Shown in pieces: positions 2,990 through 21,730 of a stretch of 21,730 nucleotides of DNA (position 1 is its first letter; each line of letters opens with the position of its first letter). Below the pieces are notes generated by a model. That model had not been told where the DNA came from. It was given only the letters and a program-made list of their open reading frames with translations, and did no database searches. Source of the stretch: Pseudomonadota bacterium (GTDB lineage: Bacteria > Myxococcota_A > Polyangia > JAAYKL01); assembly GCA_023229365.1 (NCBI GenBank), contig JALNZK010000002.1:318343-340072 (forward strand). Reading direction: 5' to 3'. The position numbers and the translations under genes are program-made.

Positions 2990-3059
2990 TTTATTCTCCT
3001 TGTGGTTAAATACCCACGTTTTAGATACAATAGATACTCATGCCCTTTTAAATTTATGC

Positions 3060-3088: not shown

Positions 3089-3101
3089 TATATAGGATAT
3101 T

Positions 3102-3635: not shown

Positions 3636-3671
3636 TTATTATTTGTTAAAATTGACTGTGGAGGATTACAA

Positions 3672-5288: not shown

Positions 5289-5539
5289 GCACTTATGTCC
5301 ATAACGCCATTGTTGAGAATGGCTTACAATCTGAGTTTGCTTATGGAGATAAGCTTGCGAAAAGACACGGATTTGAAGATGGACCGCTGCATCGACGCCG
5401 ACAAGGAACTATTGAGCAATTCGATGAGTGGATTGCCAATTGTTTAAAGGATGTTGAAGAAGGGAAAATGTGCCCTGTTAGAGCTAGAAAAATAATTGAA
5501 AGATGGTGGACACTTCGAGAAAAAAAGGCAAATAGATAA
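5285..5539 (+). CDS. Hypothetical protein (84 aa)
   Basis: ATGA overlap with the upstream gene. Protein-like composition. Antisense ORFs 5341..5565 and 5444..5641 are judged spurious. Confidence 0.6.
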   Translation: MSTYVHNAIVENGLQSEFAYGDKLAKRHGFEDGPLHRRRQGTIEQFDEWIANCLKDVEEGKMCPVRARKIIERWWTLREKKANR

Positions 5540-5628
5540 TGAAATGGGAAGCTTTTTGTGGTCATGAATTAGGCAAGTTTGACCAATACAAAGATGCTGT
5601 AAAAGCCATATTTGATGAATTGCTATAA
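5539..5628 (+). CDS. Possible small ORF (29 aa)
   Basis: TAATG overlap with the upstream stop. Manual translation: MKWEAFCGHELGKFDQYKDAVKAIFDELL. Below the ORF-track size cut-off. Confidence 0.3.
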   Translation: MKWEAFCGHELGKFDQYKDAVKAIFDELL

Positions 5629-5639
5629 AAGAAGGTCGC

Positions 5640-5765
5640 ATGAGTTATTTAATCTTGGAAACAGCGACTTGGGTTGTTTCTGATGGCCTGCCAATTATGT
5701 TTTATGAAATGCGAGACAATGCAATTGATCGTGGGTGGATCAATGAGAGTAAATGGTGTGGATAG
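5640..5765 (+). CDS. Possible small ORF (41 aa)
   Basis: aaagaaggtcgcATG SD-like. Manual translation: MSYLILETATWVVSDGLPIMFYEMRDNAIDRGWINESKWCG. Confidence 0.35.
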   Translation: MSYLILETATWVVSDGLPIMFYEMRDNAIDRGWINESKWCG

Positions 5766-5851
5766 TGTGTAATTTAAAGAATGGTTATTGACCGAAAAGG
5801 CAGAACGCACCTTCCAAAGTGGAAAAGAATTTAAGTGGTCGATAGCTAAAC

Positions 5852-5887
5852 AAAAAAAGGCAGGGATTTTTCAATCCCTGCCTTTTT
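5852..5887. terminator. Bidirectional rho-independent terminator
   Basis: 10-bp stem ggcagggatt(5859-5868)/aatccctgcc(5873-5882), flanked by A7 upstream and T5 downstream. It sits between convergent gene blocks. Confidence 0.75.
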
Positions 5888-5900
5888 AGCTTTTCCAGAA

Positions 5901-6422
5901 CTATCTATTTCGGAATTGCTGACACCAGAAGATTACTCCGCTGGCAGTACGAAAAGCCGCCACACCAATGCGTAGATGACCTGGGTTGAGAATGTTCGCC
6001 CTGTGACCTGACGAATTCATCCAACAATTGACCACATCACTACTGTGCGGTTGTCCCATTGCAATGTTTTCAGCAAGTGGGAGCCTCGTATGCACCATTG
6101 CCTGATTGCGAGTCATCCAGGCAGCGTGCCCTCTGGCGGTCTGCATCAAATCCTTGTCAACCTCGAAAGGCGGAAGACCATATCGTGCCCGCTCTTCGTT
6201 GGTGAATTTAATGATGTTGGCTTCAATTTCGGCAAGCTTCACACCATCAACCACCACTACTTTATCCGCAGCAGTCGGATAATTTGTTATTGCTTCCACT
6301 TCAGTGGTCTGTGCCGTCGTTGGGGCATTATAACTCTGCTGGCGACGACCTCTGCCTCTGGCTTCTGCCACTGAACAAACACACAACACAACAACAAACG
6401 CAAACAATAGATTCAACCTCAT
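5901..6422 (-). CDS. Secreted CAP/SCP/PR-1-like (YkwD-type) protein
   Basis: Signal peptide MRLNLLFAFVVVLCVCSVAEA. CAP-domain motifs NEERARYGLPP, HAAWM, NSSGHRANILNPG. Strong SD (aaggagtatcgtATG). Confidence 0.85.
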   Translation of the reverse strand: MRLNLLFAFVVVLCVCSVAEARGRGRRQQSYNAPTTAQTTEVEAITNYPTAADKVVVVDGVKLAEIEANIIKFTNEERARYGLPPFEVDKDLMQTARGHAAWMTRNQAMVHTRLPLAENIAMGQPHSSDVVNCWMNSSGHRANILNPGHLRIGVAAFRTASGVIFWCQQFRNR

Positions 6423-6460
6423 ACGATACTCCTTAGGGCTAGGGGTTGAAACACACAGAA

Positions 6461-6477
6461 TGTCCTCACCGTGAGGA
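6461..6477 (-). terminator. Possible weak terminator or stabilising hairpin after the vWA gene
   Basis: 7-bp stem gtcctca/tgaggac with a 3-nt loop, 8 nt past the stop at 6485. The downstream minus-strand tract is only moderately U-rich. Confidence 0.3.
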
Positions 6478-6484
6478 CGAAATA

Positions 6485-7219
6485 TTAGCTATCGGTTTTG
6501 TGCAATGCATCGTATTCCGCCGATGTTGCTCGCAGAACGGCCCTGTTGTGAACTTCATCGGCATCACAAGAAGCAGAGGTTCTCGATTCGTAATCGGCAT
6601 AGGCTTTGCTTCCAGCCGCCGCAAAAGCCATAGCTTCCATCGTTCTTGCCGATTTGCCGCCTGTGAACTCATTCAACAGCATTAGTTTGGTATCGGCAGC
6701 TTGAGCCACATTAGCCCAGAATTTGCTTCCGCTATTCAGGCATTGCAACGGGAAAACACGGACACCCATTTCTTTGAGGGCAGCCAATTCTTGTCTCCAA
6801 TTCAGCTTGCCTTCATTCTGCGGATAATTAACATCGTGGGGATCAGCATCACCAATCATGACGAAAGCCGCCGCCACACCGGGGGTCCAACCCAAATCCC
6901 TGGCTTCGTGCAAAACCAATTCATAACATTCATCGCAATCGCCACCCGATGTGTCAGGTGCATTGCGAATAAAGTCGAAGATTTTTGCACGATCATTCGT
7001 GAGCTTTAGCACACGGATGCAGTTTTGTCCATCGCAATAATCCCCGTGAGAAATAAATGCCATTTTCAAGCCGGGAATATTTGCAAATAAACCCTCACAG
7101 GTTTCTTCCAGATGTTTGCGAACATCAGCGATACACGGTCGCATGGAACCTGTGGTGTCAAAACTTATGCCAATTTCCGTAGCGTCATCAATTCTTTCGC
7201 CAAGTGTTTGTTCCGCCAT
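6485..7219 (-). CDS. von Willebrand factor A (vWA) domain protein, last gene of the JAB-E1 cassette
   Basis: MIDAS-like DxTxS (ISFDTTGSM), later TSGG and MIGDADPHD. Start moved to the internal ATG at 7219 (MAEQTL...), which has an SD (aagaggaaaaaATG) and avoids overlap with the E1 gene ending at 7233. Confidence 0.8.
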   Translation of the reverse strand: MAEQTLGERIDDATEIGISFDTTGSMRPCIADVRKHLEETCEGLFANIPGLKMAFISHGDYCDGQNCIRVLKLTNDRAKIFDFIRNAPDTSGGDCDECYELVLHEARDLGWTPGVAAAFVMIGDADPHDVNYPQNEGKLNWRQELAALKEMGVRVFPLQCLNSGSKFWANVAQAADTKLMLLNEFTGGKSARTMEAMAFAAAGSKAYADYESRTSASCDADEVHNRAVLRATSAEYDALHKTDS

Positions 7220-7232
7220 TTTTTCCTCTTTT

Positions 7233-7877
7233 CTAGTGCATTGCACTAATGTGTAAGTCACGCAGGGTAATGGACCATGATTGATGCCGTGGCGATGATG
7301 CCAAGAAGAAATCAAGGATTTCCTCTGAGGCTGCCGCTACTGTCAACATGATGATGTTACGAGCCAAGGGATAGTCGCAAACGTCGCCACCGCTGTCCTT
7401 TGGCACCTTGTAGCGATCATCCCATACAACCTCGCCATAATCTTCAAATAATCCAGTGTGCAGACATGGAATCTTCTTTGCCCGGCAATGGGTTTGAACA
7501 ATTTGCCGTGCAGCATTATTATCAAAACAATCCAACACCAATGCTGAGCCACGCAGCATTTTATCCACGGTAGCGGCGGTCAATTCCTTGTCCACGGTGT
7601 CAATTTCAACACCAATGTTGCCAAACACCTTCTGTTTGGCGGCGGCAACTTTCAAAGCTCCAACATCCCGCTCATTCCAAAACTGGGTGTTTAGATTATG
7701 AGTATCGACACGATCTTTGTCAATACCACGGAGATTGGCAAATCCTTGTCGAGAAAGATTGTCAAGCAAATTGCTACCCAGGGCTCCTACACCACAAATG
7801 GTGATTAGACCTTGCAATTTCTTGGCATAATCCTTGCCTCGGTAAATTTCTTCATGATGGAATTTATTCGTTGCCAT
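7233..7877 (-). CDS. ThiF/MoeB/E1-like adenylyltransferase (short, 214 aa)
   Basis: Rossmann Gly loop ICGVGALGSNL. GIDKDRVDTHNLNTQ (compare the ThiF/E1 D.D.V..SNL.RQ pattern). LDCFDNNAARQ. Cys in GGDVCDYP. SD ggaggaagaaaATG. Confidence 0.88.
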   Translation of the reverse strand: MATNKFHHEEIYRGKDYAKKLQGLITICGVGALGSNLLDNLSRQGFANLRGIDKDRVDTHNLNTQFWNERDVGALKVAAAKQKVFGNIGVEIDTVDKELTAATVDKMLRGSALVLDCFDNNAARQIVQTHCRAKKIPCLHTGLFEDYGEVVWDDRYKVPKDSGGDVCDYPLARNIIMLTVAAASEEILDFFLASSPRHQSWSITLRDLHISAMH

Positions 7878-8025
7878 TTTCTTCCTCCACTATTTCGTAA
7901 ACTGTGCCCCAAATCTTATCATGTGGATCGTAACGCATTTGTATATGATTGAAACTGCAATTGTCGGGATTTGGTCGAAATTCAAGCCATGCTTCAAATT
8001 CTGGTATGTAATTTGCCCGCAGCAT
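7864..8025 (-). CDS. Candidate small ORF (53 aa) between the JAB and E1 genes
   Basis: Manual translation: MLRANYIPEFEAWLEFRPNPDNCSFNHIQMRYDPHDKIWGTVYEIVEEENGNE. Overlaps the E1 start by 14 nt. More protein-like than the competing 78-aa frame 7890..8126, which overlaps the JAB 3' end. Neither frame is proven. Confidence 0.3.
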   Translation of the reverse strand: MLRANYIPEFEAWLEFRPNPDNCSFNHIQMRYDPHDKIWGTVYEIVEEENGNE

Positions 8026-8097
8026 AAATATCCAGCAACCCAAATATCTCTATATTTCACCAAATACTGATATTTGGTTTTACCAGTTGTTTTTATT

Positions 8098-8661
8098 TCA
8101 CTTGGGTTTGTCTGTTTCAATTTCATTCGCCACCTCTTCGCTCTCTAGGAGAGCACCCAAATTAATTGCAGAGTCTTGATCCCAATCAATGGCATGCCCC
8201 CCAAGCTCAACCTCTTCATCAAATAATGTCAAGTCATCCTCCACAACGACATTAGGTGTTGCCAAGCCATAGCAAGCCAGTGGCTTTTTGGGTGTAATTC
8301 CTACAATTAGTTGCCCAAAGCTCTTTAGAGTACGAATGGGAATTGGAGGTTGTTCATCGCTGTAATACAAATAACCCTTGAGCCCATTGACTCCTTCGAT
8401 CAAACAAACGAGAGGCTTGCCAAACGACAACACCCACTGTGCCATTGTAGCATCATCCCGTGGGCTTGGGGAGGCGATCATTCCGGGGTGCGTGTGATAA
8501 AACCCAACCACATCCCCATATTTTTCTTCACGATCCATGACCCACTTATATGGAAAATCCACGGAGCCAGGGTGCCCTTCGCTTTCGTGCGAAACATGAC
8601 CCCACCACATTCTCCTGTGATTTCCGCCCGTCAAAATCCACGATTGTTCATTTTGTCTCAT
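8098..8661 (-). CDS. JAB/MPN (JAMM) metalloisopeptidase
   Basis: Complete JAMM motif HTHPGMIASPSPRD (HxHx7Sx2D) with upstream acidic residues. The ATG directly abuts the upstream stop (TAAATG). Confidence 0.9.
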   Translation of the reverse strand: MRQNEQSWILTGGNHRRMWWGHVSHESEGHPGSVDFPYKWVMDREEKYGDVVGFYHTHPGMIASPSPRDDATMAQWVLSFGKPLVCLIEGVNGLKGYLYYSDEQPPIPIRTLKSFGQLIVGITPKKPLACYGLATPNVVVEDDLTLFDEEVELGGHAIDWDQDSAINLGALLESEEVANEIETDKPK

Positions 8662-9177
8662 TTATTTTTCCCTTAGTCGTTTTATTGCTTCTTGACGTTG
8701 TTCTCGGGTTTGTTCTTCTAGTTCTTGAGTAAACAATTTCCCGCTCATGTAATATTCTGTACCCCAAGCTGGGCACATTTTGTGTAATTCAGGACGACCA
8801 CAACCAGGGCACACACAATCTTTTGACTCTTCTATGTCCCAGTCCATTGACTCTACAATTTCTTTCACATTCTCTTCGATAAATTTCTCACAAGCCTCTG
8901 GACCAATAGCTTCTCGCAATGCAGCAAACGGATTGCCTGTCGCTGCCCAGCGTGCCTCTTCTTCTTCCCAACACTCGTTTTGTCCACACTCTTTAACCTG
9001 ATCCCACAACAAAGCAACGGATGGGTGTTTGTCTTCTTCCCAATCACCACGTTCCAAAAATGCACAATAGCCGTCTTCTTGTTCAGCGTGGTCGGGGTGC
9101 TTGCTCCAATAAGGGCAAATGCCATTTGTATCATAGCAATATATTCCCTTCGGAATTAAACTCGGGTCTTTATTCAT
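8662..9177 (-). CDS. Cys/Trp/Glu-rich hypothetical protein (171 aa), probable metal-binding
   Basis: Start set at the ATG at 9177 (MNKDPS...), which forms an ATGA overlap with the GIY-YIG stop. Cys clusters: YCYDTNGICPYW...GYCAF and CVCPGCG...MCPAWG. Confidence 0.6.
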   Translation of the reverse strand: MNKDPSLIPKGIYCYDTNGICPYWSKHPDHAEQEDGYCAFLERGDWEEDKHPSVALLWDQVKECGQNECWEEEEARWAATGNPFAALREAIGPEACEKFIEENVKEIVESMDWDIEESKDCVCPGCGRPELHKMCPAWGTEYYMSGKLFTQELEEQTREQRQEAIKRLREK

Positions 9178-9893
9178 AATGTTTTCTTTTCCAACACTTT
9201 CCAATTTTTGTAATGTGCGATTTTGCCAGCAGCTACACTCCACATATGCCCAGAATTCAAATTGTGTTCCCTTGAAAACTGCTCCAAATTACTTGTCTCG
9301 AATACTTCTCCATCTGGCGATGCTATTTTGTATGCGAATTTCAATTTTTTGTTTCGCATTTTTTCTTTTGACTTATCCGAATACTTTCTTCCTGTGGCTG
9401 ATTTGGCAATTTTGTTTTTGTGTTCCTCTGTAAGCGTTTTGCCAGTGTTAAATAGCGATAACTTCTTTTTTGTTTTATTGCTTACTTTGTGTCCTAAATG
9501 ACTCGATCTAAGCTTTTTAATTGTTGCTTGGGTTACTTTTTTCCCTTTGTTGCCGATGGATATTTTGCGTTTAACCTCCTCAGATATTACGCCTCGGGCA
9601 TTTCCAAGTTTTAAATTATAACCATTTGGAGAAAGGGTTTTTAATTCACAGCCCCAATACACTTCCCTGGCATCTATTTCTTCTTGTGTGCCATTTAATT
9701 TTTCTAACACCACAATCTTAAAATGTTCTGGTCCGTATTTTCGAATGGCAAGGACAATCGGCATTAGTTTGGTGTTATTCCACCTTGCCTCCGCACAGTG
9801 TCTTTTGAACCTTTCTTCTGCCGTTTTCCAAGTTTGCCCAACATAGACCTTTGCATTAAGATCATTTATTATTTTGTATATAATTGCTTCCAT
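9174..9893 (-). CDS. GIY-YIG homing endonuclease (I-TevI/Seg-like) with NUMOD3-type repeats
   Basis: IIYKIINDLNAKVYVGQT (GIY...YIG), R/H/E core, NGYN. C-terminal repeated S.GNKGKK / SSHLGHKVS / NTGKTLTEEHKNKI DNA-binding motifs. Confidence 0.9.
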   Translation of the reverse strand: MEAIIYKIINDLNAKVYVGQTWKTAEERFKRHCAEARWNNTKLMPIVLAIRKYGPEHFKIVVLEKLNGTQEEIDAREVYWGCELKTLSPNGYNLKLGNARGVISEEVKRKISIGNKGKKVTQATIKKLRSSHLGHKVSNKTKKKLSLFNTGKTLTEEHKNKIAKSATGRKYSDKSKEKMRNKKLKFAYKIASPDGEVFETSNLEQFSREHNLNSGHMWSVAAGKIAHYKNWKVLEKKTL

Positions 9894-9945
9894 ACAATTA
9901 TATAGTAGCTTTCTAATTTATTTGCCCACTAATTTCCTTCTTTTC

Positions 9946-10401
9946 TTATAATTTGTCAAATTGGTCTCTGATCTTCATTAGAAGTTTTCCAAGATGGTTT
10001 TCCCCAACTCCGTTGCATACCCCAAAAAACGTGTCGTGCCACCAATTTCCTTCTACTAATTCCGCCTTGCCAGTGGCAAGAAGCTGATTGCATAATTGTG
10101 GATCGGAGAATTTTTGCACAAGCAAATCTTCCATAATCCCTAAATTAATATTTTGCCAATCGGGTCGTTGGTGTCCAGCTTTTTTGAATACAGCCGCAAG
10201 CTTCTTTGCTTTTCCAGGGGTAATAGCGTCTTGAATTTGCTTACGCAATGCCGGGTCTAAAAATTTAGCAGCTTGGTAAGCGTGTTCGGTGGAAATATAT
10301 TTTTCACCATCCAAAACTACCGGCGTGGACAGTATGGCAAAATTCGACAAATACCTGTATTCACCATCAAATGAATCAATTTTTGTTTGCTTGTCATTCA
10401 T
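9946..10401 (-). CDS. NADAR (YbiA/DUF1768) domain protein
   Basis: FDGEYRYLSNF, YISTEHAYQAAKF, GNWWHDTFFG and GENHLGKLLMKIR match the NADAR signature. Confidence 0.88.
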   Translation of the reverse strand: MNDKQTKIDSFDGEYRYLSNFAILSTPVVLDGEKYISTEHAYQAAKFLDPALRKQIQDAITPGKAKKLAAVFKKAGHQRPDWQNINLGIMEDLLVQKFSDPQLCNQLLATGKAELVEGNWWHDTFFGVCNGVGENHLGKLLMKIRDQFDKL

Positions 10402-10634
10402 TTTTTCTTTTCTTTCTTTTCAAGCTTTTTCAATGAATGTGCCAAATCCATTGAATTTGTTACTTTTCTCACTCCCTTTTTAAATTGTTTCAATTCTTCA
10501 CGCAACCGAATCACTTCTGCCTCCATGACCTGTGCTTTGCAACCATAGTCATACAAAACACCAGCGGTTGGCTCTGCCTTATTGACAGCATTCCAAAACT
10601 TGCGGGAGGCATTTCCAGAAAATATTTTTTTCAT
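10398..10634 (-). CDS. Hypothetical coiled-coil protein (~78 aa)
   Basis: Start placed at the ATG at 10634 (TAATG coupling to the upstream stop) rather than 10649. Lys-rich C-terminus. Confidence 0.5.
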   Translation of the reverse strand: MKKIFSGNASRKFWNAVNKAEPTAGVLYDYGCKAQVMEAEVIRLREELKQFKKGVRKVTNSMDLAHSLKKLEKKEKKK

Positions 10635-11122
10635 TACATTTCTGTCCACGATTTCAAAGGTGGTGCTACCAACATCTTTACAAACATCATGATTGTTCCG
10701 TAGACCACATCATCCTTGGTGAAATTAAATCTTTTCATTGCCTCATCATTCACCCATTCCATCAAGGAAGTGGCCCTTTCCTCGGAACGGGTCTTCCAAT
10801 CACACACCAACTCGGCAAGATAAATGCGGGGCATTCCTTTAATTCCGCCATCCCAATATTCTGGGTGGTGTTTATTCGTATGATTGTGCTGCATAATAGC
10901 GAGTTTCAAGGCAGCCTTATCTGGATTCTCTATTGATAAATGATCCCATTCAGCACCAAAAAACTTGCTATTATCGTGAAGAAAAGAATTTGCCACCAGC
11001 GTTTTGGCAAGCTTAAACTCTCCATTCTCCATCAGTCTTTCAGCAAGAATTACGCAATTCTCCTGAACACCGTGAATGTGCCGCATCAGTTTTTGAATAC
11101 GATCAATATCACGCTGACTCAT
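10634..11122 (-). CDS. HD-motif protein (putative metal-dependent phosphohydrolase-like; resembles phage DUF5662-type proteins from memory)
   Basis: H...HD pattern (HIHGV...FLHDNSKF), HNHTNKHHPEYW, AELVCDW. Start at 11122 preferred (ATGA coupling with the upstream 50-aa ORF); 11170 is the alternative. Confidence 0.5.
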   Translation of the reverse strand: MSQRDIDRIQKLMRHIHGVQENCVILAERLMENGEFKLAKTLVANSFLHDNSKFFGAEWDHLSIENPDKAALKLAIMQHNHTNKHHPEYWDGGIKGMPRIYLAELVCDWKTRSEERATSLMEWVNDEAMKRFNFTKDDVVYGTIMMFVKMLVAPPLKSWTEM

Positions 11123-11271
11123 TTCTTTTCTTGCTCCTTTTGCTTCTGTTCGATAATATAATTTCGACACCTTTCCAGTGCTTGATAATAAAGCAATTGG
11201 GAAAGTGGATCAACAGTATCTTGCAGACCTTTTGCACAAGCCAATTCGTGATTGTATTCTATTTCAGTCAT
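11119..11271 (-). CDS. Possible small ORF (50 aa)
   Basis: Manual translation: MTEIEYNHELACAKGLQDTVDPLSQLLYYQALERCRNYIIEQKQKEQEKK. It fills the gap between 11278 and 11122 with an ATGA overlap. Confidence 0.35.
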   Translation of the reverse strand: MTEIEYNHELACAKGLQDTVDPLSQLLYYQALERCRNYIIEQKQKEQEKK

Positions 11272-11277
11272 GATTTA

Positions 11278-12225
11278 CTAATCGTCGTCGTCGTCGTCGT
11301 AATCGTGCTCTGGCTCGTTGCCACGATTATGGCCGTATTGATTCCAATACCACGTATCACGACCAGAGGTATCTACAATATGGTCACGGCGGTGTCCCTC
11401 TCGGATAACACCTACTAGACTTTGAAGATCAAAGTTACGGTCATAGCCCGACAAACAAATACCAGCAGAAATTACTGATAAAGTTTTTTTGTCAACAACT
11501 GAACGATGAGGGTTTCCATCGATTTGATATTCAATAGTGAAACTGTCTCCACGCTCAATGTGGCTTTTATAATCAGCACCAGCACGCTCTAGGGCAACTT
11601 TGATACGATTGCCTGCCTGTGCCATCTTGGCTTCTTCGCTGGCTTCATAGGCGACCTTATAAGCGATTTGGTATGCATCCAATTCTTGCTTGGAAACAAT
11701 ATCCAAATCCAGCTTCTCTGGCTTGGCCAATGTAGTCAACATTTCTCGCAAATATGCTCCGCTTTTCGGACTTTTGCGAGGGTCTACTTCATCAAACCAA
11801 CAAATCTGTCCATCGAAACGAGCACAAACAGTATCAAACAATTGCACTTCCTCAGACAAATAAATCGGCACGGACCCAGAAATGTTAAATCTGGCATCTG
11901 CCTGAGCAAGGGTTCCATACCACAAATCTTTATTTTGATGGTGCAAAATAAATTTCATAGTAGGAAACAATGCCAAGTATTGTCTTCGCTCCATCATGGA
12001 CGGGGCACGCACATGTTTGGCCAAACGACGGGTGGTAGGCTTGAAAACACCCCAACCCTGAAAATTCACAGGCACTACACGCATTTCCATCACAATGCCA
12101 GAAATACGAACTCTGACCGCTCGCCCCTTGAGCACAGGGGACAAAAACTCTGATTGAAGGAATTGATCTTCCTCAGCGGCGAGCTTATCGATCAGACTGT
12201 GAATATTCGTTTTCTTTTTTTTCAT
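11278..12225 (-). CDS. Hypothetical protein (315 aa) with a C-terminal hexa-Asp tail
   Basis: Start set at the ATG at 12225 (MKKKKTNIHS), directly after the upstream stop (TAACATG). Ends ...EHDYDDDDDD. No motif recognised. Confidence 0.7.
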   Translation of the reverse strand: MKKKKTNIHSLIDKLAAEEDQFLQSEFLSPVLKGRAVRVRISGIVMEMRVVPVNFQGWGVFKPTTRRLAKHVRAPSMMERRQYLALFPTMKFILHHQNKDLWYGTLAQADARFNISGSVPIYLSEEVQLFDTVCARFDGQICWFDEVDPRKSPKSGAYLREMLTTLAKPEKLDLDIVSKQELDAYQIAYKVAYEASEEAKMAQAGNRIKVALERAGADYKSHIERGDSFTIEYQIDGNPHRSVVDKKTLSVISAGICLSGYDRNFDLQSLVGVIREGHRRDHIVDTSGRDTWYWNQYGHNRGNEPEHDYDDDDDD

Positions 12226-15127: not shown

Positions 15128-15253
15128 TCCGTCCAAGTTACAAAAACTGTTTTTGGTAAACAATGCAGGAATTGAACCAGCATTCTTCAGTTTTCAAGAC
15201 TGACGCTCAACCATTGAGCTAATTGTTTGTAAGTTTTAGTGGTATGGGACGGA
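15128..15253 (-). ncRNA. Y-RNA-like module 1: conserved stem motif flanking a complete tRNA
   Basis: Terminal stem tccgtcc(15128-15134)/ggacgga(15247-15253). The conserved 5' and 3' motif strands bracket the tRNA at 15154-15228. Confidence 0.6.
15154..15228 (-). tRNA. tRNA or tRNA-like, anticodon UGA, class I (short variable arm), CCA encoded
   Basis: Minus sense: AAACAAT-TA-GCTC-AATGGTT-GAGC-G-TCAGT-CTTGAAA-ACTGA-AGAAT-GCTGG-TTCAATT-CCTGC-ATTGTTT-A-CCA. U8, A14, G18G19, U33 and the T-loop TTCAA are present. One T-stem mismatch. A Ser-type anticodon without the long variable arm is anomalous. Confidence 0.55.
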
Positions 15254-15256: not shown

Positions 15257-15385
15257 TGGAGGGTGTTGGATTCGAACCAACATTTTTTCGTTTTCAGTGA
15301 AAAAAGTTACCTTTTGTTTGTATGTCTCTCAGGTGTGGGACAATTGCTTGTCCAAGTTTGGGAAACTGAACGTTTTTAACCCTCC
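15257..15385 (-). ncRNA. tRNA-like RNA (anticodon loop CUGAAAA, GAA/Phe-type) with the conserved stem-loop inserted in the D-loop (module 2)
   Basis: 7-bp acceptor GGAGGGT/ACCCTCC. T arm GTTGG-TTCGAAT-CCAAC. Anticodon arm present. The D region is replaced by ...GTTCAGTT[motif hairpin, loop AGCAAUU]...AAGGTAAC. No CCA. Confidence 0.55.
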
Positions 15386-15395: not shown

Positions 15396-15522
15396 CGGGG
15401 AAGATGGGATTCGAACCCATAATTTTTCCTTAACAGGGAAACTTTTACCAATTGTTTGTATGTCTCTCAGGTGTGGGATGGTCGCCCATCCAAGTTTGGG
15501 AAACTGAACTTCTAACTTCCCC
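15396..15522 (-). ncRNA. tRNA-like RNA (anticodon loop CUGUUAA, GUU/Asn-type) with the conserved stem-loop inserted in the D-loop (module 3)
   Basis: Perfect acceptor GGGGAAG/CTTCCCC. T arm ATGGG-TTCGAAT-CCCAT. Anticodon stem TTTCC/GGAAA. D region ...GTTCAGTT[hairpin closed by GGAUGGG-CGA-CCAUCC]...TTGGTAAAAG. Confidence 0.55.
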
Positions 15523-15743: not shown

Positions 15744-15902
15744 CATAAGGCAAACATTTGATCGTCCAAGTCGAAGAAACTGTTTTTTGCAACAATGTTG
15801 GATTCGCACCAACTACCGAAACTTTATGGAAGTTTTGCTCTACTGATGAGCTAATTGTTTGTAAGTTCCGTCAGTATGGGACGATCAAATGTTTGCCTTA
15901 TG
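15744..15902 (-). ncRNA. Y-RNA-like module 5: 24-bp perfect terminal stem plus conserved motif flanking a degenerate tRNA-like domain (CAU loop)
   Basis: cataaggcaaacatttgatcgtcc(15744-15767) is the exact reverse complement of 15879-15902. The inner tRNA-like domain (15789-15860) has a D-loop ATCAGTA lacking GG, anticodon loop UCCAUAA (C33) and T-loop TGCGAAT. Confidence 0.6.
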
Positions 15903-15913
15903 TTGATTTTACC

Positions 15914-16090
15914 GACGCAAGCAAGTGTTGGCCCGTCCAAGTCGAAAAAGCTGTTTCACATAGTGACAGTTTAATAGACTGTTGCCTTTACCATTAGGCT
16001 AAAACACATTTTGGCGTGTTTGTTGGATTCGAACCAACAGATTGTTTGTAAGCTCTGTCTGTGTGGGACGAGCAAACACTTGCCTGCGTC
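15914..16090 (-). ncRNA. Y-RNA-like module 6 with a circularly permuted tRNA-like domain
   Basis: Long imperfect terminal stem 15914-15938/16066-16090. Minus-sense order: motif 5' strand, T arm (GTTGG-TTCGAAT-CCAAC, 16022-16038), loop-capped helix AAACAC/GTGTTT (16002-16021), D-like arm with GG (15984-15999), ACAGT-CTATTAA-ACTGT (15966-15982), motif 3' strand. Confidence 0.6.
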
Positions 16091-16092: not shown

Positions 16093-16260
16093 CATCATCA
16101 AGCTTCCGTCTGTCCAAGTTGAAGAAGCTGTTCAACTTTTGACAGTTCCAATTACTGGTGCCTGACCGTTAGGCTACATTCCTTGCGGAATGATGGGAGT
16201 CGAACCCACTTATTTGTTTGTAAGCTCCGTCTGTATGGGACAGACGGAAGCTTGATGATG
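16093..16260 (-). ncRNA. Y-RNA-like module 7 with a circularly permuted tRNA-like domain and a GNRA-capped acceptor-like helix
   Basis: 23-bp perfect terminal stem 16093-16115/16238-16260. T arm 16193-16209. CATTCC-GCAA-GGAATG hairpin 16177-16192. D-like GCCT-AACGGTC-AGGC 16160-16174. CAGT-AATTGGA-ACTG 16143-16157. Confidence 0.6.
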
Positions 16261-16891: not shown

Positions 16892-19240
16892 ATGGAAATT
16901 AAAGGTGCATTTAAGGCCGAAACGATTGTTGCTGGCAATATTAATTATTCAGCAGATACTGGGGCTGCCAACGCTTATGTTGTAAGCTTGGGTTTAAATT
17001 ATTTATTTATAGGGCTGCCGGTTTCTTTCAAAGCCTCTCATGATAATACAGGTGCGTCAACTTTAAAAGTTGATAGTCTGCCTGCTGTTGCTATTAAAAA
17101 AAATGTAAGTGATGCCCTGGATATGGGCGATATCAAAACAGGACAAGTCATCACTGTTATTTATGATGGAATATATTTTCAAATAGCAAGTGCCCTTGGC
17201 TCAGGTATTAGCGGATATTCTGGCTACTCTGGAATTGGTATTAGTGGGTATAGCGGATATTCAGGTGACTCAGGCATTAGTGGGTATAGCGGATATTCAG
17301 GTGACTCAGGCATTAGTGGGTATAGCGGATATTCAGGTGACTCAGGCATCAGTGGATACTCAGGATACTCAGGATCAGGCATCAGTGGATATTCAGGATA
17401 CTCAGGATCAGGCATCAGTGGATATTCAGGATACTCAGGATCAGGCATCAGTGGATACTCAGGATACTCTGGAACCACAAATATATATTTGGGAAATCCA
17501 ACGACTGGCGATTACCTAGATGGGTTATTTCCCTGGGAACCCAATGTAACTTTGATTGCTGATGCCGAACAAGAAGTAAATGAAGTATTAGCTGCATTAG
17601 CACCCGCACCAGCACCCAATTTTTCGACATATAACAATGCCCAAACAACAGGAGCAACAGGAAAACTAAGTTTTGATGGATCATATCCCATAGGCGGTGT
17701 ATCGAACGTAGATGGCATTGGCAATTGCACATCTGTCGCTGTCGATGGTGCATTTACTTATAATGCTTTAAGCGGCATGCGAAGAGGTGTTTTTAGTTCC
17801 ACAACAACAAGTTTTACAGGACAATTGGCATCTAATATTGTTGCAGAACCGAATGGAGCATATCTTCAATATGCTTTTATTGACGGTGACACAGGAATTC
17901 TAAGTATATATGTCAATAATGATGTAACACCAAAACATACTGTTGATTTATCAATATTTAGTTCTGGAAGCTCTCTGAATGGCAATGGCACCGGGTTTAC
18001 AAGTATATCAGCAGTAACCTATGAAAAATTTCCTAATGGCAGTGATTTTACATTATTTGTTTATAGGACAGCACAATGGGTGGTCAATACCGCTGATTGC
18101 AGAGAAGGTTGGAATTGGGTGCGTATTACCCATACCGTAGGAACAGATCGCCCGCCCACCAATCTTTATTGCGATTTTATTCGTGACCTAAATACTACGA
18201 CCACGACTTTTTCTGCGGACACGCTTACAGGATTTACTGGCAGTGGATCAAAATATTTGTCGGGAGTAAATTATTATACGGGTGGATCGGCAACTTATGC
18301 CGCAACAATCAGCAATCTTTACAGAAACACATGGTATACAGGATCAGATGCTATTGCTTACAGCTTTAACAGCACCCCTTTACAAGCATTGACAAATGAA
18401 TCTTTGGGCAATTCAGGAGGGGATGAAGCACTAGATGTAACTAAATCAAAAACAGTAAACATTACTTCATCCAGCACCAGACTAAATCCCACTGCTGGAC
18501 ATACCATTAGTGTTAGAACAACTGCAAAAAGGACTGTGCAATCTACTCAATCTTCATCCTATCGATCTATCACAGATATACTTCTTGATAATTTTGTTGC
18601 CTCATCTACCGTTACTGCTGAATATTTTGACGATGAGACTTATAGATTGCCATCAAATTCAGATTTTGACAACGACGCTACAGCCGTCACTAGTTCGTGG
18701 ACATCATCTAATACCATTGCTGATGCTGGTAGTGCTGGATACAACGATGGAACACAAACATATAATGGCACACTTGTGTATCCAACAATGAATTTCTCAA
18801 CCATAGCCAATGGTCCCGCTGGAAACGTTAACTACTCCACAGGTATATCTGGTGAACGTTGCTATTATAGATTTTTTGACATGTTAACCACAGCTAGGAG
18901 CAATTTTACACTTACGGTAAATGGAGCGTCAATAACACCAATATCAAATGGAACGGCTTTTTCTACAACAAGTCAAATAAAAATAGATATTAAGCTACCT
19001 AATGATGGTGGAGAAGGCACTGGTTGGCTAGATGTAACTGCATTGTTCGCAACAGCCCATTGGTCAGACGGTGACGGATGTTTGTTATCAGGAACATTTT
19101 CTATGAATTCTGCCATGTCAATAACTGTTGGCACAAAATCTACGGGAGCCGCAAGTGTTAATGGCAAGGTATTTTTAAGAATTAGAGTTCCTAGTGGATG
19201 GATTAGAAATTTGACTAGTATTACATTGGTTGGAGCATAA
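16892..19240 (+). CDS. Tail fibre protein with an internal (G-x-S/GYS) repeat stalk (782 aa)
   Basis: The N-terminal segment ADTGAANAYVVSL...FKASHDNTGASTLKVDSLPAVAIKK matches the widespread tail-fibre N-terminal pattern (NAY.v.l....F.a...NTGa.TLnv.gl.a..i). A 92-aa SGYSG repeat follows, then a long Ser/Thr/Asn-rich beta-type C-terminal region. Confidence 0.8.
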   Translation: MEIKGAFKAETIVAGNINYSADTGAANAYVVSLGLNYLFIGLPVSFKASHDNTGASTLKVDSLPAVAIKKNVSDALDMGDIKTGQVITVIYDGIYFQIASALGSGISGYSGYSGIGISGYSGYSGDSGISGYSGYSGDSGISGYSGYSGDSGISGYSGYSGSGISGYSGYSGSGISGYSGYSGSGISGYSGYSGTTNIYLGNPTTGDYLDGLFPWEPNVTLIADAEQEVNEVLAALAPAPAPNFSTYNNAQTTGATGKLSFDGSYPIGGVSNVDGIGNCTSVAVDGAFTYNALSGMRRGVFSSTTTSFTGQLASNIVAEPNGAYLQYAFIDGDTGILSIYVNNDVTPKHTVDLSIFSSGSSLNGNGTGFTSISAVTYEKFPNGSDFTLFVYRTAQWVVNTADCREGWNWVRITHTVGTDRPPTNLYCDFIRDLNTTTTTFSADTLTGFTGSGSKYLSGVNYYTGGSATYAATISNLYRNTWYTGSDAIAYSFNSTPLQALTNESLGNSGGDEALDVTKSKTVNITSSSTRLNPTAGHTISVRTTAKRTVQSTQSSSYRSITDILLDNFVASSTVTAEYFDDETYRLPSNSDFDNDATAVTSSWTSSNTIADAGSAGYNDGTQTYNGTLVYPTMNFSTIANGPAGNVNYSTGISGERCYYRFFDMLTTARSNFTLTVNGASITPISNGTAFSTTSQIKIDIKLPNDGGEGTGWLDVTALFATAHWSDGDGCLLSGTFSMNSAMSITVGTKSTGAASVNGKVFLRIRVPSGWIRNLTSITLVGA
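17198..17473 (+). repeat. Coding tandem repeat: 36-nt unit x3 (GISGYSGYSGDS) then 33-nt unit x3-4 (GISGYSGYSGS)
   Basis: Direct reading of 17198-17473. All three forward frames and the reverse frames stay open here, which produces spurious ORFs. Confidence 0.9.
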
Positions 19241-21730
19241 ATGGCGTTATCAACAGACACAATGGCCCAAATGGCATTAAAGTTCCTCTTAGGTAAGAGT
19301 GATACTAATTATGCACAGAAAGGACCAAACAATGAGGCTGAAGCTTACAACATTGTTGTTGATGGCACTAAAGTCTGGACAGATAGTGTTCCAGGCACGG
19401 CTCCTGTTGGTGACACGAGTGTTATTTATTGTCTGGATGGAGTGACGCACGCTCAGGCTGTCCTTACAGCCGATCCAACATCTAATGGGCAAGCATTTTT
19501 TGCCACATATCCAGCAGGAGAGATGTCTTATCCGCCTGGAATTTCTGCTGGAGACAGAGTAAAAAATGCCATTCCTCCGTCTTATGGAACAGACTATGAA
19601 GGAAAACCATACGCCGGGGCCACACTCATTCCTCCTGGAGATGGAAGAGATTGGATTTATCAATATGAATCTGGTGTGTTTTTTCAAGAAACCGCCAGTG
19701 CCCCACCAACTCCAACCTCTATTAAGATTTATGTTTATATAGGGAAAACTGTAGCTACGGGCGGCTACAGTGGATATTCTGGAATCAGCGGTTACTCAGG
19801 ATCAGGAATTAGTGGCTACAGCGGTTACTCAGGCATTAGTGGTTACTCTGGTTCTGGTGTCAGTGGCTACTCAGGATATAGTGGTTCAGGCATTAGTGGT
19901 TACTCTGGTTCTGGTGTCAGTGGCTACTCAGGGAAAAGTGGATACTCAGGCTCAGGCATCAGTGGCTACAGCGGTTATAGTGGTTCAGGCGTTAGTGGTT
20001 ACAGCGGTTACTCAGGGAAAAGTGGGTACTCAGGCTCAGGCGTTAGTGGTTACTCAGGATCAGGCATTAGTGGATACTCTGGCTCAGGTGTCAGTGGTTA
20101 CTCAGGATATAGTGGGTATTCAGGGAAAAGTGGATACTCTGGAATTAGTGGATACTCTGGATCGGGCATTAGTGGCTACAGCGGATATAGTGGAATTAGC
20201 GGCTACTCGGGCATCAGTGGATATAGTGGAATTAGCGGCTACTCGGGCATCAGTGGATATAGTGGAATTAGCGGCTACTCGGGATATAGCGGTTACTCAG
20301 GATATAGTGGTTCAGGCATTAGTGGATACTCTGGCTCAGGTGTCAGTGGTTACTCGGGATATAGCGGTTACTCAGGATATAGTGGTTACTCAGGTATTAG
20401 TGGATACTCAGGCTCAGGCATCAGTGGCTACAGCGGTTATAGTGGTTCAGGTGTTAGTGGCTACAGTGGTTATAGTGGTTCAGGTGTTAGTGGCTACAGT
20501 GGTTATTCAGGCGTTAGTGGTTATTCAGGTTACTCAGGTTCAGGTGTCAGTGGCCACAGCGGAATTAGCGGCTACTCGGGCATTAGCGGCTACTCGGGCA
20601 TTAGTGGTTACTCGGGCATTAGTGGTTACTCGGGCATTAGTGGTTACTCGGGATATAGCGGTTACTCAGGAAAAAGTGGATACTCAGGCATTAGCGGTTA
20701 CTCAGGATCGGGCATCAGTGGTTACTCAGGATATAGCGGTTACTCAGGGAAAAGTGGATACTCGGGCATTAGTGGTGACTCGGGCATTAGTGGTTACTCG
20801 GGCATTAGTGGGTACTCGGGCATTAGTGGGTACTCGGGCATTAGTGGTTACTCGGGCATTAGTGGGTACTCGGGCATTAGTGGTTACTCGGGATATAGCG
20901 GTTACTCAGGATCGGGCATCAGTGGTTACTCAGGATATAGCGGTTACTCAGGGAAAAGTGGATACTCGGGCATTAGTGGTTACTCAGGTTCAGGTATTAG
21001 TGGATACAGTGGTTATTCAGGCATTAGTGGTTATTCAGGCATTAGTGGTTACTCGGGCATTAGTGGGTACTCGGGCATTAGTGGGTACTCGGGCATTAGT
21101 GGGTACTCGGGCATTAGTGGGTACTCGGGCTCAGGTGTCAGTGGTTACAGCGGATACTCAGGAGAGCCAGCACCATATTTGTATTTATATAATTCAGCCC
21201 ATACCAGCACCCCTGGTGCTGGTCATTTCTCCGCAGATGATGTATTAACAGATGCTACCGTTGTATACATTTCATCAATAGAGTTTCATACTACCGATGT
21301 TTATATGTTTTTTAACCTTATGAAGGTTGGGGATCAAATAAGGATTACAAATCTCAATAATAAGGCATTATACTTTGGTTTTAACATCATAAGTATTGAT
21401 AGTTCAGTCAGTGATGTTATCGCACTGGGTGTGAATACGGGGCCTTTTAGCGGAGGGTTTAGCCCAGGATTTGATGGGTCTTTTGGTGGTACTGGATTCA
21501 GCGACAATGATTTGGTTGAAATTTCATTGCAAGTCATAGGAGTTTCAGGCTACTCAGGCGTTAGTGGTTACTCGGGATATAGTGGCTCAGGCATCAGTGG
21601 TTATTCTGGCATTAGTGGGTACTCGGGTTACTCAGGCTCAGGCATTAGTGGATACTCTGGATCGGGCATCAGTGGCTACAGTGGTTATTCAGGGAAAAGT
21701 GGATACTCTGGAATTAGTGGATACTCTGGA
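19241..21730 (+). CDS. Second tail fibre-like protein, 3' end outside the window (>829 aa), dominated by (S/G)YSG repeats
   Basis: The ATG at 19241 abuts the TAA of the upstream gene. Manual translation: MALSTDTMAQMALKFLLGKSDTNYAQKGPNNEAEAYNIVVDGTKVW...IKIYVYIGKTVATGGYSGYSGISGYSGSG.... I followed this frame through the ~125-aa non-repeat domain (EPAPYLYLYNSAHTSTPGAGHF...LVEISLQVIG) and into a second repeat block without meeting a stop. Missing from the ORF track because it has no stop in the window. Confidence 0.8.
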   Translation, partial: MALSTDTMAQMALKFLLGKSDTNYAQKGPNNEAEAYNIVVDGTKVWTDSVPGTAPVGDTSVIYCLDGVTHAQAVLTADPTSNGQAFFATYPAGEMSYPPGISAGDRVKNAIPPSYGTDYEGKPYAGATLIPPGDGRDWIYQYESGVFFQETASAPPTPTSIKIYVYIGKTVATGGYSGYSGISGYSGSGISGYSGYSGISGYSGSGVSGYSGYSGSGISGYSGSGVSGYSGKSGYSGSGISGYSGYSGSGVSGYSGYSGKSGYSGSGVSGYSGSGISGYSGSGVSGYSGYSGYSGKSGYSGISGYSGSGISGYSGYSGISGYSGISGYSGISGYSGISGYSGISGYSGYSGYSGYSGSGISGYSGSGVSGYSGYSGYSGYSGYSGISGYSGSGISGYSGYSGSGVSGYSGYSGSGVSGYSGYSGVSGYSGYSGSGVSGHSGISGYSGISGYSGISGYSGISGYSGISGYSGYSGYSGKSGYSGISGYSGSGISGYSGYSGYSGKSGYSGISGDSGISGYSGISGYSGISGYSGISGYSGISGYSGISGYSGYSGYSGSGISGYSGYSGYSGKSGYSGISGYSGSGISGYSGYSGISGYSGISGYSGISGYSGISGYSGISGYSGISGYSGSGVSGYSGYSGEPAPYLYLYNSAHTSTPGAGHFSADDVLTDATVVYISSIEFHTTDVYMFFNLMKVGDQIRITNLNNKALYFGFNIISIDSSVSDVIALGVNTGPFSGGFSPGFDGSFGGTGFSDNDLVEISLQVIGVSGYSGVSGYSGYSGSGISGYSGISGYSGYSGSGISGYSGSGISGYSGYSGKSGYSGISGYSG
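19760..21163 (+). repeat. 1.4-kb coding array of imperfect 9/15/18-nt-based repeats encoding ~468 aa of G-[YIVKSD]-S triplets with frequent GS phase shifts
   Basis: Direct reading: GYSGYSGISGYSGSGISGYSGYSGISGYSGSGVSGYSGYSGSGISG...GKSGYSG.... A second block resumes at 21539 and runs to the window end. Confidence 0.9.

Follow-up and report, generated by a model that had tools for sequence, protein, structure and literature searches.

Two adjacent fibre genes of a huge phage with long proline-free, probably collagen-like G-X-S tracts

The window analysed here is a stretch of 21,730 nucleotides (contig JALNZK010000002.1 of assembly GCA_023229365.1, positions 318,343 to 340,072 of the forward strand), at the end of which lie two adjacent genes, fibre gene 1 and fibre gene 2, with long tracts built almost only of G-X-S triplets (Table 1). 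The contig (340 kb in the NCBI version, 228 kb in the European Nucleotide Archive (ENA) version) was deposited within a 'Proteobacteria bacterium' metagenome-assembled genome (MAG); from gene content and relatives we read the window as part of a huge phage whose contig ended up in a bacterial genome bin. No nucleotide match was obtained when the complete window was compared by megablast with 50,697 phage records. The product of fibre gene 1 is identical to NCBI entry MCK9458664.1, a 'hypothetical protein' encoded on the 340-kb contig, and fibre gene 2 continues past the end of the window. An initial annotation, made from the letters alone, had described two neighbouring fibre genes with repeats. 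We could verify both the open reading frame (ORF) at 16892..19240 and the open frame from 19241, and the counts given for the repeats, 92 residues in fibre 1 and 468 plus 64 residues in fibre 2, are right (the second stretch in fibre 2 being residues 766-830).

Table 1. Features of the two fibre genes; positions are those of the window, and rows without positions use the residue numbering of the ENA version of fibre 2.
Feature	Position	Strand	Description
Fibre gene 1	16892..19240	+	complete ORF, 782 aa: N-terminal domain, G-X-S tract, all-beta C-terminal body
Fibre 1, N-terminal domain	16892..17197	+	aa 1-102; weak match to phrog_4900 'tail protein' (E 1e-6)
Fibre 1, collagen-like tract	17198..17473	+	aa 103-194, 92 aa, G33 S31 Y16 I9 D3
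Fibre 1, conserved C-terminal body	17474..19237	+	~585 aa, multi-domain beta-sandwich
GGAG Shine-Dalgarno-like motif	19232..19235	+	within the 3' end of fibre gene 1, 5 nt before the fibre 2 ATG
Fibre gene 2	19241..21730	+	first 830 codons of a ~2,125-codon gene; continues past the window end
Fibre 2, N-terminal domain	19241..19759	+	aa 1-173, conserved; presumed virion anchor
Fibre 2, tract I	19760..21163	+	aa 174-641, 468 aa; G-Y-S, G-I-S, G-V-S and G-K-S triplets, 20 G-S-G interruptions
ORF of 492 aa, Val/Thr/Ala/Leu/Gln-rich	19770..21248	+	+1 frame; artefact kept open by the repeat
57-nt (19-aa) in-frame block	19829..19885	+	in the window, not in ENA; flanked by a 47-nt exact direct repeat
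111-nt (37-aa) in-frame block	20240..20350	+	in the window, not in ENA; 8 nt of flanking exact repeat
Single-base difference	20777	+	window G (GAC, Asp); ENA contig T (TAC, Tyr)
Fibre 2, island 1	21164..21535	+	124 aa, non-repeat, globular; candidate trimerisation/registration knot
Fibre 2, tract II (start)	21536..21730	+	aa 766-830 (65 aa in the window); 72 aa when complete
Fibre 2, ENA numbering, first part			N-domain 1-175; tract I 176-585; island 1 586-711; tract II 712-783
Fibre 2, ENA numbering, middle part			island 2 784-897; tract III 898-992; non-repeat region including the GDSL esterase 993-1781
Fibre 2, ENA numbering, last part			tract IV 1782-1925; C-terminal domain 1926-2069

The TAA stop codon of fibre gene 1 (19238-19240) directly abuts the ATG of fibre gene 2 at 19241. 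The same abutment of stop and start is present at an orthologous locus (L005; loci and proteins retrieved in our searches are numbered with L and P), and the two genes may well be translationally coupled. From this ATG onwards there is no stop within the 830 codons up to the window end, just as the initial annotation had stated. It had proposed extending the contig to find the stop, and this was possible with the ENA contig k141_1691469 (228,182 bp), which carries the exact fibre 1 sequence and on which fibre 2 is called from the same ATG as a 2,069-aa protein terminated by a stop; all that we report on fibre 2 beyond position 21730 comes from this contig and not from the window's own assembly. 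An exact-sequence look-up of the 2,069-aa protein returned no identical entry in the protein collection searched. The pattern goes well beyond chance: the amino-acid entropy is 2.05 bits in the frame from 19241 versus 3.14 and 3.31 bits in the other two, and the third frame is interrupted by 54 stops. At the nucleotide level the Y-S-G unit comes in 21 versions, and the Ser codons are divided between the AGY (83) and TCN (79) families, so that the variation of the repeat units is overwhelmingly synonymous in this frame. Given the conserved N-terminal domain, the stop on the ENA contig, the in-frame GDSL domain described below, and the synonymous variation of the units, the frame from 19241 represents a real gene, a conclusion that we regard as practically certain. 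The ORF at 19770..21248 has a higher entropy than the true frame and measures 436 aa in the ENA assembly versus 492 aa in the window; its classification as an artefact was thus correct. The second gene is indeed missing from the ORF track, as had been pointed out, albeit for the trivial reason that the ORF lister omits ORFs running off the source. A promoter and terminator scan gave fewer sites than in shuffled sequence and was uninformative.

The tract of fibre 1 is composed of three 12-aa units (GDS-GIS-GYS-GYS) followed by three 11-aa units (GS-GIS-GYS-GYS). The protein belongs to a family of 66 'hypothetical proteins', which are encoded on contigs of up to 617 kb, and shares 35-37% identity with proteins of LR756502 and LR756500. 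In a protein search of phage records with the C-terminal 588 aa, matches were restricted to LR756500-LR756508, i.e. to genomes of 462-735 kb. In one of these orthologues (L002), a similar N-terminal domain is fused straight to the C-terminal part without any repeat in between. The C-terminal body was modelled by AlphaFold2 (AF2) with a predicted local distance difference test score (pLDDT) above 90. A Foldseek search of this model against BFVD retrieved A0A516MAW2 (E 2e-47) and CcrColossus K4JVS8 (E 8e-23), both uncharacterised phage proteins, and a comparison with PDB structures gave generic Ig-like matches only and no convincing relative.

In fibre 2, four tracts, which together comprise ~720-780 aa, alternate with globular segments: each tract precedes one of them (island 1, island 2, the esterase region, and the C-terminal domain). 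The N-terminal domain of fibre 2 shares 41-43% identity with proteins from two uncultured huge phages, LR756500 and LR756502. Whereas a word-indexed homologue search with this domain recovered a single protein, an exhaustive HMMER search, which proved to be needed, yielded 271 cluster representatives. In nearly all of the 150 representatives that were listed, the domain begins at residue 1, and the proteins are 130-2,272 aa long. The family therefore displays what characterises phage tail fibres, a conserved N-terminal attachment domain followed by a variable distal part. The GDSL/SGNH domain, which lies beyond the window, matches Pfam Lipase_GDSL_2 (PF13472) with 72.3 bits (cut-off 32.9; E 9e-20), and the GDSL blocks GDS (I), GxND (III), and DxxH (V) are found in the translation as GIGDSIMSG, GGVNDI, and DGVHF; the nearest solved chains are GDSL-like proteins (E 1e-7). 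Island 1 has no match in Pfam or PHROG, and a query of viral and genome contig collections with it returned none either. It shows weak similarity to island 2 (25% identity, E 0.004) and to an island in the protein gp23 of Methylophilaceae phage P19250A, discussed below (E 0.006 in a tiny database).

The fibre 1/fibre 2 pair is adjacent and conserved in LR756500, LR756502, and Ga0265297. At two further loci, the gene following the fibre 1 orthologue encodes 1,590-1,794 aa (L016, 10372-15144; L017, 10539-15923), and the latter combines collagen tracts with a pectate-lyase/beta-helix domain. From these sequences it appears that the enzymatic head of fibre 2 has been swapped across lineages, being an esterase here and lyase-like in L017. 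In the 462-kb phage LR756500 (L001), an IS605-type OrfB/TnpB (Cas12f-like) gene has been inserted amid the fibre genes (4294-5163, minus strand).

Judging from architecture and relatives, both genes are likely to encode fibre-type virion proteins, and this part of the initial annotation stands. Its assignment to the tail is unproven, as the homologues in phiCbK-like phages lie next to capsid genes; we consider attachment to the tail rather than the head somewhat favoured. Several observations weigh against it. In their own phage, the two genes are flanked by non-structural genes (ThiF, JAB, NADAR, homing endonuclease, tRNAs). The phiCbK-like phages are the only cultured phages with the fibre 2-type N-terminal domain (28-31% identity; some of the proteins are annotated as 'tail protein'), and their homologues are located beside capsid and head-filament genes. 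The two proteins might thus belong to the head or neck, as head fibres, whiskers, or a head filament, with the repeat having the same structure and the same spacer role. CcrColossus gp088/gp089 and CcrSC gp131/gp132 directly follow the major and minor capsid genes and stand ahead of a giant Gly-rich protein, the proposed head filament of phiCbK; they are well separated from the genes for the tail tube and the tape measure. Furthermore, the proteome of phiCbK virions, in which eight proteins were detected, does not include the homologues (PMC3556154), a G-Y-S gene at another locus (L013) lies between head-completion and tail-completion genes, and the neighbours in two of the huge-phage genomes (L001, L002) also match 'head decoration' PHROGs. 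In the LR7565xx genomes, however, the neighbours of the pair match tail-fibre, tail-spike, and virion-structural PHROGs, and the N-terminal domain of fibre 1 itself matches a 'tail protein' PHROG. The G-X-S protein of P19250A comes after host-specificity protein J and a tail-fibre gene, and G-Y-S proteins bear domains typical of tail fibres or baseplates (Mtd_N, T4_gp9_10_N, DUF2793, and Peptidase_S74). Esterase domains, too, are typical of tail fibres and spikes. A location on the head or neck is therefore the clearly less probable one. We found no study in the literature on structures of the phiCbK homologues. In CcrColossus gp087-gp089 (L008) and CcrSC gp130-gp132 (L007), a fibre 2-type N-terminal domain and a fibre 1-type C-terminal body are fused in gp088 and separate in gp087/gp089, which indicates module shuffling within the family.

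What, then, is the nature of the tracts? Tract I consists of G164 S162 Y84 I39 V11 K6 H1 D1 (468 aa; Gly 35%) and is encoded by tandem repeat DNA with periods of 9-99 nt. The spacing between successive Gly residues is 3 in 142 of 163 cases (87%) and 2 in 20 cases, which always read G-S-G. Uninterrupted G-X-Y runs extend to 22 triplets, with a mean of 6.5. Gly thus occupies every third residue across long stretches, which is the pattern captured by Pfam Collagen (PF01391), and fibre 2 matches this family with 131.8 bits (E 7e-39; threshold 27.2). The G-S-G motif is a G1G interruption, i.e. a one-residue deletion in the Gly-X-Y pattern that leaves Gly-X-Gly (PMC11923368).

The comparison of orthologues is more telling. 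Following the N-terminal domain of fibre 2, one relative (P0002) has 258 aa of GPT/GPQ collagen and two others (P0003 and the L005 protein) have GAT/GPV triplets, while four (P0004, P0008, P0124, and L006) have G-(Y/F/W)-S tracts with GWS, GFS, and GYS. The site preceding the fibre 1 C-terminal body holds ~900 aa of GAT/GPx collagen in the L005 orthologue, GPQ/GPT/GPA in P0180-P0198, GYS/GFS in P0152 and P0159, and, in P0163, a mixture of GYS with GAP, GQA, and GPS triplets. In LR756500 and LR756502, both sites are without a tract. Since all these tracts occupy the same two sites, the G-Y-S tract appears to be one of several interchangeable spacer fillings, ordinary collagen among them. G1G breaks (GIG, GLG, GAG) are frequent in the canonical collagen tracts of the orthologues as well. 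In addition, small G-Y-S proteins carry Mtd_N, T4_gp9_10_N, or DUF2793, and Peptidase_S74, a C-terminal trimeric chaperone, directly follows the tract. For prophage collagen-like tail-fibre proteins, trimeric triple helices have been demonstrated by experiment (PMC3368898). Taken together, we consider it probable that the two loci are real fibre genes with collagen-like triple-helical G-X-S spacers, and for the structure of the tract itself the sequences favour, with perhaps slightly more confidence, a collagen-like triple helix with hinges. The initial annotation had recognised the collagen-like period and the register-shifting GS/GSG insertions, and the 20 G-S-G shifts bear this out; its doubt about a canonical triple helix is weakened by the canonical collagen and the G1G breaks in orthologues.

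This assignment meets with a number of objections. In host-guest peptides, aromatic side chains in the Xaa position rank with the most destabilising ones. Tract I contains no Pro, no Thr, and merely 7 charged residues (6 Lys and 1 Asp; 1.5%), and its G1G interruptions are very frequent, one per 6.5 triplets on average. The tract of fibre 1 reaches only 25.6 bits against PF01391, just below the cut-off of 27.2. The stabilisers known from bacterial and viral collagens are Pro, KGE/KGD salt bridges, and Thr (PMC11923368); Pro at Xaa, KGE/KGD pairs, and Thr at Yaa are all absent from tract I, and without Pro and with few charges its helix is expected to be weak by the published rules. Finally, the structure predictions were made for monomers, and the tract, modelled in fibre 1, was returned with a pLDDT of 31-41 and no secondary structure, a result that argues against a self-contained solenoid or bundle and fits an obligate oligomer such as a trimer as well as disorder.

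The G-X-S tracts could instead adopt another Gly-rich fold of period 3, either a bundle of polyproline II (PPII) helices in which the G-S-G motifs serve as turns, or a trimeric beta-helix. Indeed, the runs of 2-8 triplets between G-S-G motifs resemble the ~10-residue PPII helices and short turns of such bundles (bioRxiv 10.1101/2023.11.25.568672), tract I lacks the Pro and charge that would stabilise a collagen helix, and the PDB collagen chains align to it through the periodic Gly alone. PPII bundles, however, need a Gly content well over one-third, with helices packing on several sides (bioRxiv 10.1101/2023.11.25.568672), whereas tract I has 35% Gly and bulky Tyr, Ile, or Val at X; neither this excess of Gly nor short segments joined by turns is what we find in it. 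Many relatives, moreover, have 100-840 uninterrupted aa, which leaves no turns (279 of 280 Gly spacings in P19250A gp23 equal 3), canonical collagen occupies the same site in orthologues, and AF2 did not produce a compact monomer fold. A fold of this type is therefore improbable. The initial annotation had also noted that the [G/S]Y[G/S] composition recalls self-associating low-complexity sequences, and in another view the tracts would be intrinsically disordered, FUS-like linkers acting as entropic tethers or self-associating sticky coats without any defined helix. The Gly/Ser/Tyr composition is like that of FUS-type low-complexity domains, and both the low pLDDT and the weak helix forecast by the stability rules would suit it. 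FUS-type domains lack both a strict period of 3 and a Gly in each third position, and they are rich in Gln and Pro; with the tracts they share the Gly/Ser/Tyr composition, without any evolutionary relation or positional equivalence. In our tracts, the strict Gly period is kept despite extensive synonymous divergence, and the irregularity is limited to one stereotyped motif, G-S-G. The two assemblies differ by in-frame blocks made up of repeat units, the tracts swap positionally with canonical collagen, and they are associated with trimerising chaperone domains; an unconstrained, disordered linker would not be expected to show any of these features. The FUS-like reading does not fit the strict period, and we regard disordered linkers as very improbable, marginally more so than the PPII bundle or beta-helix.

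Tracts of this kind are widespread in phages: a query with 200 aa of tract I matched at least 250 protein clusters. Of the best 120, all but two had at least 30% G-(Y/F/W)-S triplets (118/120), and in 71/120 the tract was free of Pro. A literature search for G-Y-S-type repeats or GYS collagen-like phage proteins found nothing relevant. Tract I is not the longest of its kind, which is ruled out by a 3,275-aa ORF on a 33.7-kb contig (L029, IMGVR_UViG_3300032267_001530, 2683-12087). This ORF consists nearly entirely of GYS, GFS, and GIS, follows the same G-S-G grammar (Gly spacing 3 in 935 cases and 2 in 74), and takes up over a quarter of its contig. In several cases the edge of a contig falls inside the G-Y-S repeat (L006, JACCDX010780731.1; P0008; P0124). 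Since the repeat breaks short-read assemblies, the abundance of G-Y-S tracts and their lengths are probably underestimated.

The neighbourhood of these genes offers a possible clue to the missing stabilisation. On the opposite strand, 1.1 kb downstream of fibre gene 2, lies a glycosyltransferase (GT) gene of 916 aa with the architecture GT2-Methyltransf_21-GT2, for which a PDB sequence search returned no informative relative. At four of six G-Y-S loci, which belong to a 90-kb, a crAss-like, a T4-like, and a 53-kb phage, a GT, with or without a methyltransferase, is encoded within 0.4-4 kb of the G-Y-S gene, and these GTs share 32-45% identity with the two GT modules of the window phage (E 1e-51 to 2e-91). 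A search of the 50,697 phage records with the C-terminal GT module gave a single match, in Methylophilaceae phage P19250A (KX815270). There, the GT is encoded two genes downstream of gp23 (L019, 4750-8355), a protein of 1,201 aa with an 841-aa G-X-S tract and an internal island. Gp23 is annotated as 'tail length tape-measure protein'; its triplets (GYS 76, GFS 37, GIS 35, GWS 12) and Gly spacings show this annotation to be mistaken and the protein to be a collagen-like G-(Y/F/W/I)-S fibre protein. Near gp23, the same phage encodes a poly-Gly-rich 'PE family protein', gp21.

A scan of IMG/VR for the DNA pattern (GGN TAY WSN)x3 gave at least 120 loci, of which 120 were analysed, and 46/120 listed loci qualified as aromatic G-X-S loci with at least 45 aa of tract. 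Among the loci listed, a GT was present at 24/46 aromatic G-X-S loci versus 1/74 of the others (Fisher p = 1.4e-11, odds ratio ~80). The 24 GTs lie 184-4,400 nt from the tract (274 nt in the case of the 3,275-aa ORF) and accompany 21 distinct sequence clusters. Conceivably, the substrate of the GT is the ladder of Ser or Tyr residues along the tract; we put this forward tentatively, on the grounds of gene neighbourhood and with somewhat less than even confidence. For comparison, glycosylated Thr rescues the triple helix of (GPT)10, as cited in PMC11923368, and a mycobacteriophage precedent for phage-encoded virion glycosylation is mentioned in PMC11256854.

Some loci do not follow this pattern. 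No GT is in view at two of the G-Y-S loci (L013, L014), and 22/46 aromatic G-X-S loci listed are without a GT, many of them being short. Nor is the vicinity of a GT unique to G-Y-S loci: two canonical-collagen orthologues (L016, L017) also adjoin GTs, although of unrelated families, and the notion of an exclusive adjacency had to be refined accordingly. The GT might have nothing to do with the fibre and be a moron whose target is a polysaccharide of the host surface or something else. Genes for GTs and for seroconversion are often found near tail-fibre genes, where GTs may modify the host surface, and in the window phage the GT gene is located on the opposite strand. On the other hand, at least 21 distinct phage lineages have this same GT family together with aromatic G-X-S tracts, and the association is specific. 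This family is essentially absent from the 50,697 phage genomes save P19250A with its 841-aa tract, and no GT was found at orthologous loci lacking tracts. An unrelated function of the GT is consequently rather unlikely. As a more far-reaching proposal, to which we attach limited confidence, the aromatic and aliphatic G-X-S tracts (GYS, GFS, GWS, GIS) may form a distinct, widespread, and hitherto undescribed type of phage collagen. Its helix, devoid of Pro, Thr, and salt bridges, would be stabilised or shielded by O-glycosylation of Ser or Tyr through a dedicated, co-inherited two-module GT/methyltransferase, with G-S-G motifs as hinges and unit-wise expansion to fibres of several hundred nanometres.

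The length of the tracts is labile, as had been anticipated, and ranges from 0 to ~900 aa at the two orthologous sites. Repeat units were said to recur within and between the two genes and to be a substrate for recombination. As a null for exact repeats we used synonymous resampling, which gave a maximum of 31-32 nt within fibre 2. The exact repeats of 85 nt (at 20692 and 20896) and of 45 nt (tract I versus tract II) exceed this maximum and hence point to recent duplications. Between the two genes there is no such excess, the longest exact match being 17 nt (null mean ~20, maximum 32). Recombination between both genes via shared repeat DNA was therefore discarded, as they are poor partners. 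A comparison of the window with the ENA contig showed 12,349 nt upstream to be identical, and every difference lies inside tract I: two in-frame blocks and a single base (Table 1). Both blocks hold unique 15-22-mers in the longer version of the window, which therefore represents real sequence. The 56 residues by which the assemblies differ would correspond to ~16 nm in a triple helix.

Whether this difference reflects true heterogeneity or a collapse of near-identical units in the MEGAHIT contig is, in our judgement, evenly balanced. Several points speak for collapse and thus against heterogeneity. Up to k = 22, all k-mers of the shorter version also occur in the longer version. The junction k-mers of the shorter version are unique only from k >= 41 and k >= 51 upwards, its allele at the apparent single-nucleotide polymorphism is that of the commoner repeat unit, and a 47-nt exact repeat flanks the 57-nt block. 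The 111-nt deletion, by contrast, has just 8 nt of flanking exact repeat, and both indels are in frame and start at codon boundaries. Furthermore, the final k of the contig was 141, so junction-spanning 141-mers were accepted by the assembler. The massive differences in tract length among orthologues, in any case, show that the process is real on the evolutionary time scale.

From these data one may envisage the following scenario. Fibre 1 and fibre 2 would be a coupled pair of virion fibre genes of the huge phage, with each conserved N-terminal domain presumably docking its fibre to the particle and the distal parts being variable. Across the (G-Y-S / G-I-S / G-V-S)n stretches, three chains would wind into a Gly-X-Y triple helix, in which the G-S-G one-residue deletions every few triplets should serve as kinks or hinges. 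If triple-helical, the 92-aa tract of fibre 1 would measure ~26 nm and the four tracts of fibre 2 together ~205-220 nm. The globular islands of fibre 2 may be trimerisation or registration knots, its GDSL/SGNH esterase could act on a surface glycan, and its C-terminal domain might bind the receptor. Tract length would alter readily via unit-wise duplication or deletion within the gene and thereby set the reach of the fibre. The GT, with its methyltransferase, may glycosylate the tract at Ser, which is present at every Yaa, or at Tyr, and so stabilise or shield it. The gene structure, frame, domains, and orthology are observed, as are the positional equivalence with canonical collagen and the GT co-occurrence; from them we infer a triple helix and the formation of trimers, as well as glycosylation, the site of attachment, and a biological effect of length.

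The closest architectural parallel is provided by EPclA and EPclB, side tail-fibre proteins of prophages in Escherichia coli O157:H7 (PMC3368898), which likewise consist of an N-terminal phage domain, a Gly-X-Y stalk, and a C-terminal trimerising or binding domain; EPclB, like fibre 2, has several collagen tracts split by globular domains. EPclA and EPclB were shown by experiment to be trimeric dumbbells with a true triple helix (PMC3368898). The EPcl tracts are Pro-rich, ~22% charged, short, and uninterrupted, whereas the tracts described here are free of Pro, carry 1.5% charged residues, have Tyr/Ile/Val at Xaa and Ser at every Yaa, and are broken by G1G motifs. Homology to the EPcl flanking domains was found in neither fibre, as there was no PF08400 or PF06820 match.

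The best functional analogy for a glycosylated collagen spacer of variable length is BclA of the Bacillus anthracis exosporium, the structure of which (PDB 1wck) was among the matches. BclA has a Pro/Thr collagen-like tract, and its polymorphic repeat number sets the length of the filament; the tract is O-glycosylated by dedicated glycosyltransferases, and a C-terminal trimeric domain nucleates it. BclA, however, is a bacterial spore protein with GPT triplets and glycosylated Thr, whereas the proteins in question have G-(Y/I/V)-S, belong to phages, and would be glycosylated according to their gene neighbourhood. In non-fibrillar and long bacterial collagens, G1G motifs perturb the helix, shift the register, and are thought to give flexibility (PMC11923368); here, the interruption is always G-S-G (20 in 468 aa), and KGE/KGD clamps are absent. 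The PPII bundles of snow-flea antifreeze proteins and of the phage S16 gp38 tip (bioRxiv 10.1101/2023.11.25.568672) are similar in being Gly-rich with period 3, and one of them is even part of a phage tail-fibre tip. They differ in that they need a Gly content of about two-thirds and short helices connected through turns, as opposed to one-third Gly, bulky X residues, and relatives with hundreds of uninterrupted triplets. The nearest relatives by sequence and gene order are the LR7565xx pair and phiCbK-like gp087-gp089, with 28-43% identity in the N-terminal domain, 26-37% in the C-terminal body, and the same adjacent gene order; these proteins lack G-X-S tracts and are annotated as 'hypothetical', as 'tail protein', or not at all.

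Collagen-like stalks of phage fibres are thus already known, and the Pro-free G-(Y/I/V)-S type with a linked GT is an unstudied but widespread variant. Its composition breaks the published rules for a triple helix without hydroxyproline, yet it occupies the position that ordinary collagen has in relatives. The type spans hundreds of phage protein clusters, with tracts of ~50 to ~3,000 residues. The co-occurrence with a GT suggests a concrete, testable mechanism, sugar-stabilised collagen, and with P19250A a cultured system is available. If true, it would add a new mode of stabilisation to collagen biophysics and a new building block to the design of collagen mimetics, and it would explain how phages tune the reach of their fibres through repeat number. 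On the practical side, ORF callers lose genes of this type or place them in the wrong frame, assemblies break at them, and they end up in bacterial MAGs.

The remainder of the window holds several other features. On the minus strand between 15100 and 16450 lie approximately eight tRNA-like units with a spacing of 100-230 nt, each marked by a T-arm-like GGTTCGAATCC motif together with a conserved TGTTTGTAAG..GTATGGGAC motif; single units are enclosed by long inverted repeats. Just two of them pass as tRNAs, Ser-UGA (15154-15228) and Met-CAU (15789-15860), and Rfam likewise passes only these. Rfam matches below threshold comprise a tRNA with a 53-nt insertion (15903-16008), partial tRNAs (15403-15448 and 15265-15319), and a YrlA/Y-RNA-like element (16160-16209) in which the T-arm is followed by a hairpin and D-arm. 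From their sequences, the units could be degenerate, intron-bearing, or permuted tRNA-like RNAs. The tRNA-Ser(UGA) gene (minus strand) is located 1.7 kb upstream of the fibre genes, in which Ser makes up about one-third of the repeat residues, and 124 of the 250 Ser codons in the four tracts of fibre 2 are TCA, TCG, or TCT and readable by this tRNA; a link to the translation of the fibre genes is speculative. Adjacent genes for a ThiF (E1-like) protein (7233-7877, minus strand) and a Prok-JAB (deubiquitinase-like) protein (8098-8661, minus strand), which lie beside NADAR and DUF5662 genes, may represent a ubiquitin-like conjugation/deconjugation module or serve in counter-defence. There are also two free-standing homing endonucleases (3102-3635, plus strand; 9174-9893, minus strand), with LAGLIDADG_2 and with GIY-YIG plus an HNH-like C-terminus, respectively, and genes for NUDIX, CYTH, and CAP-domain proteins.

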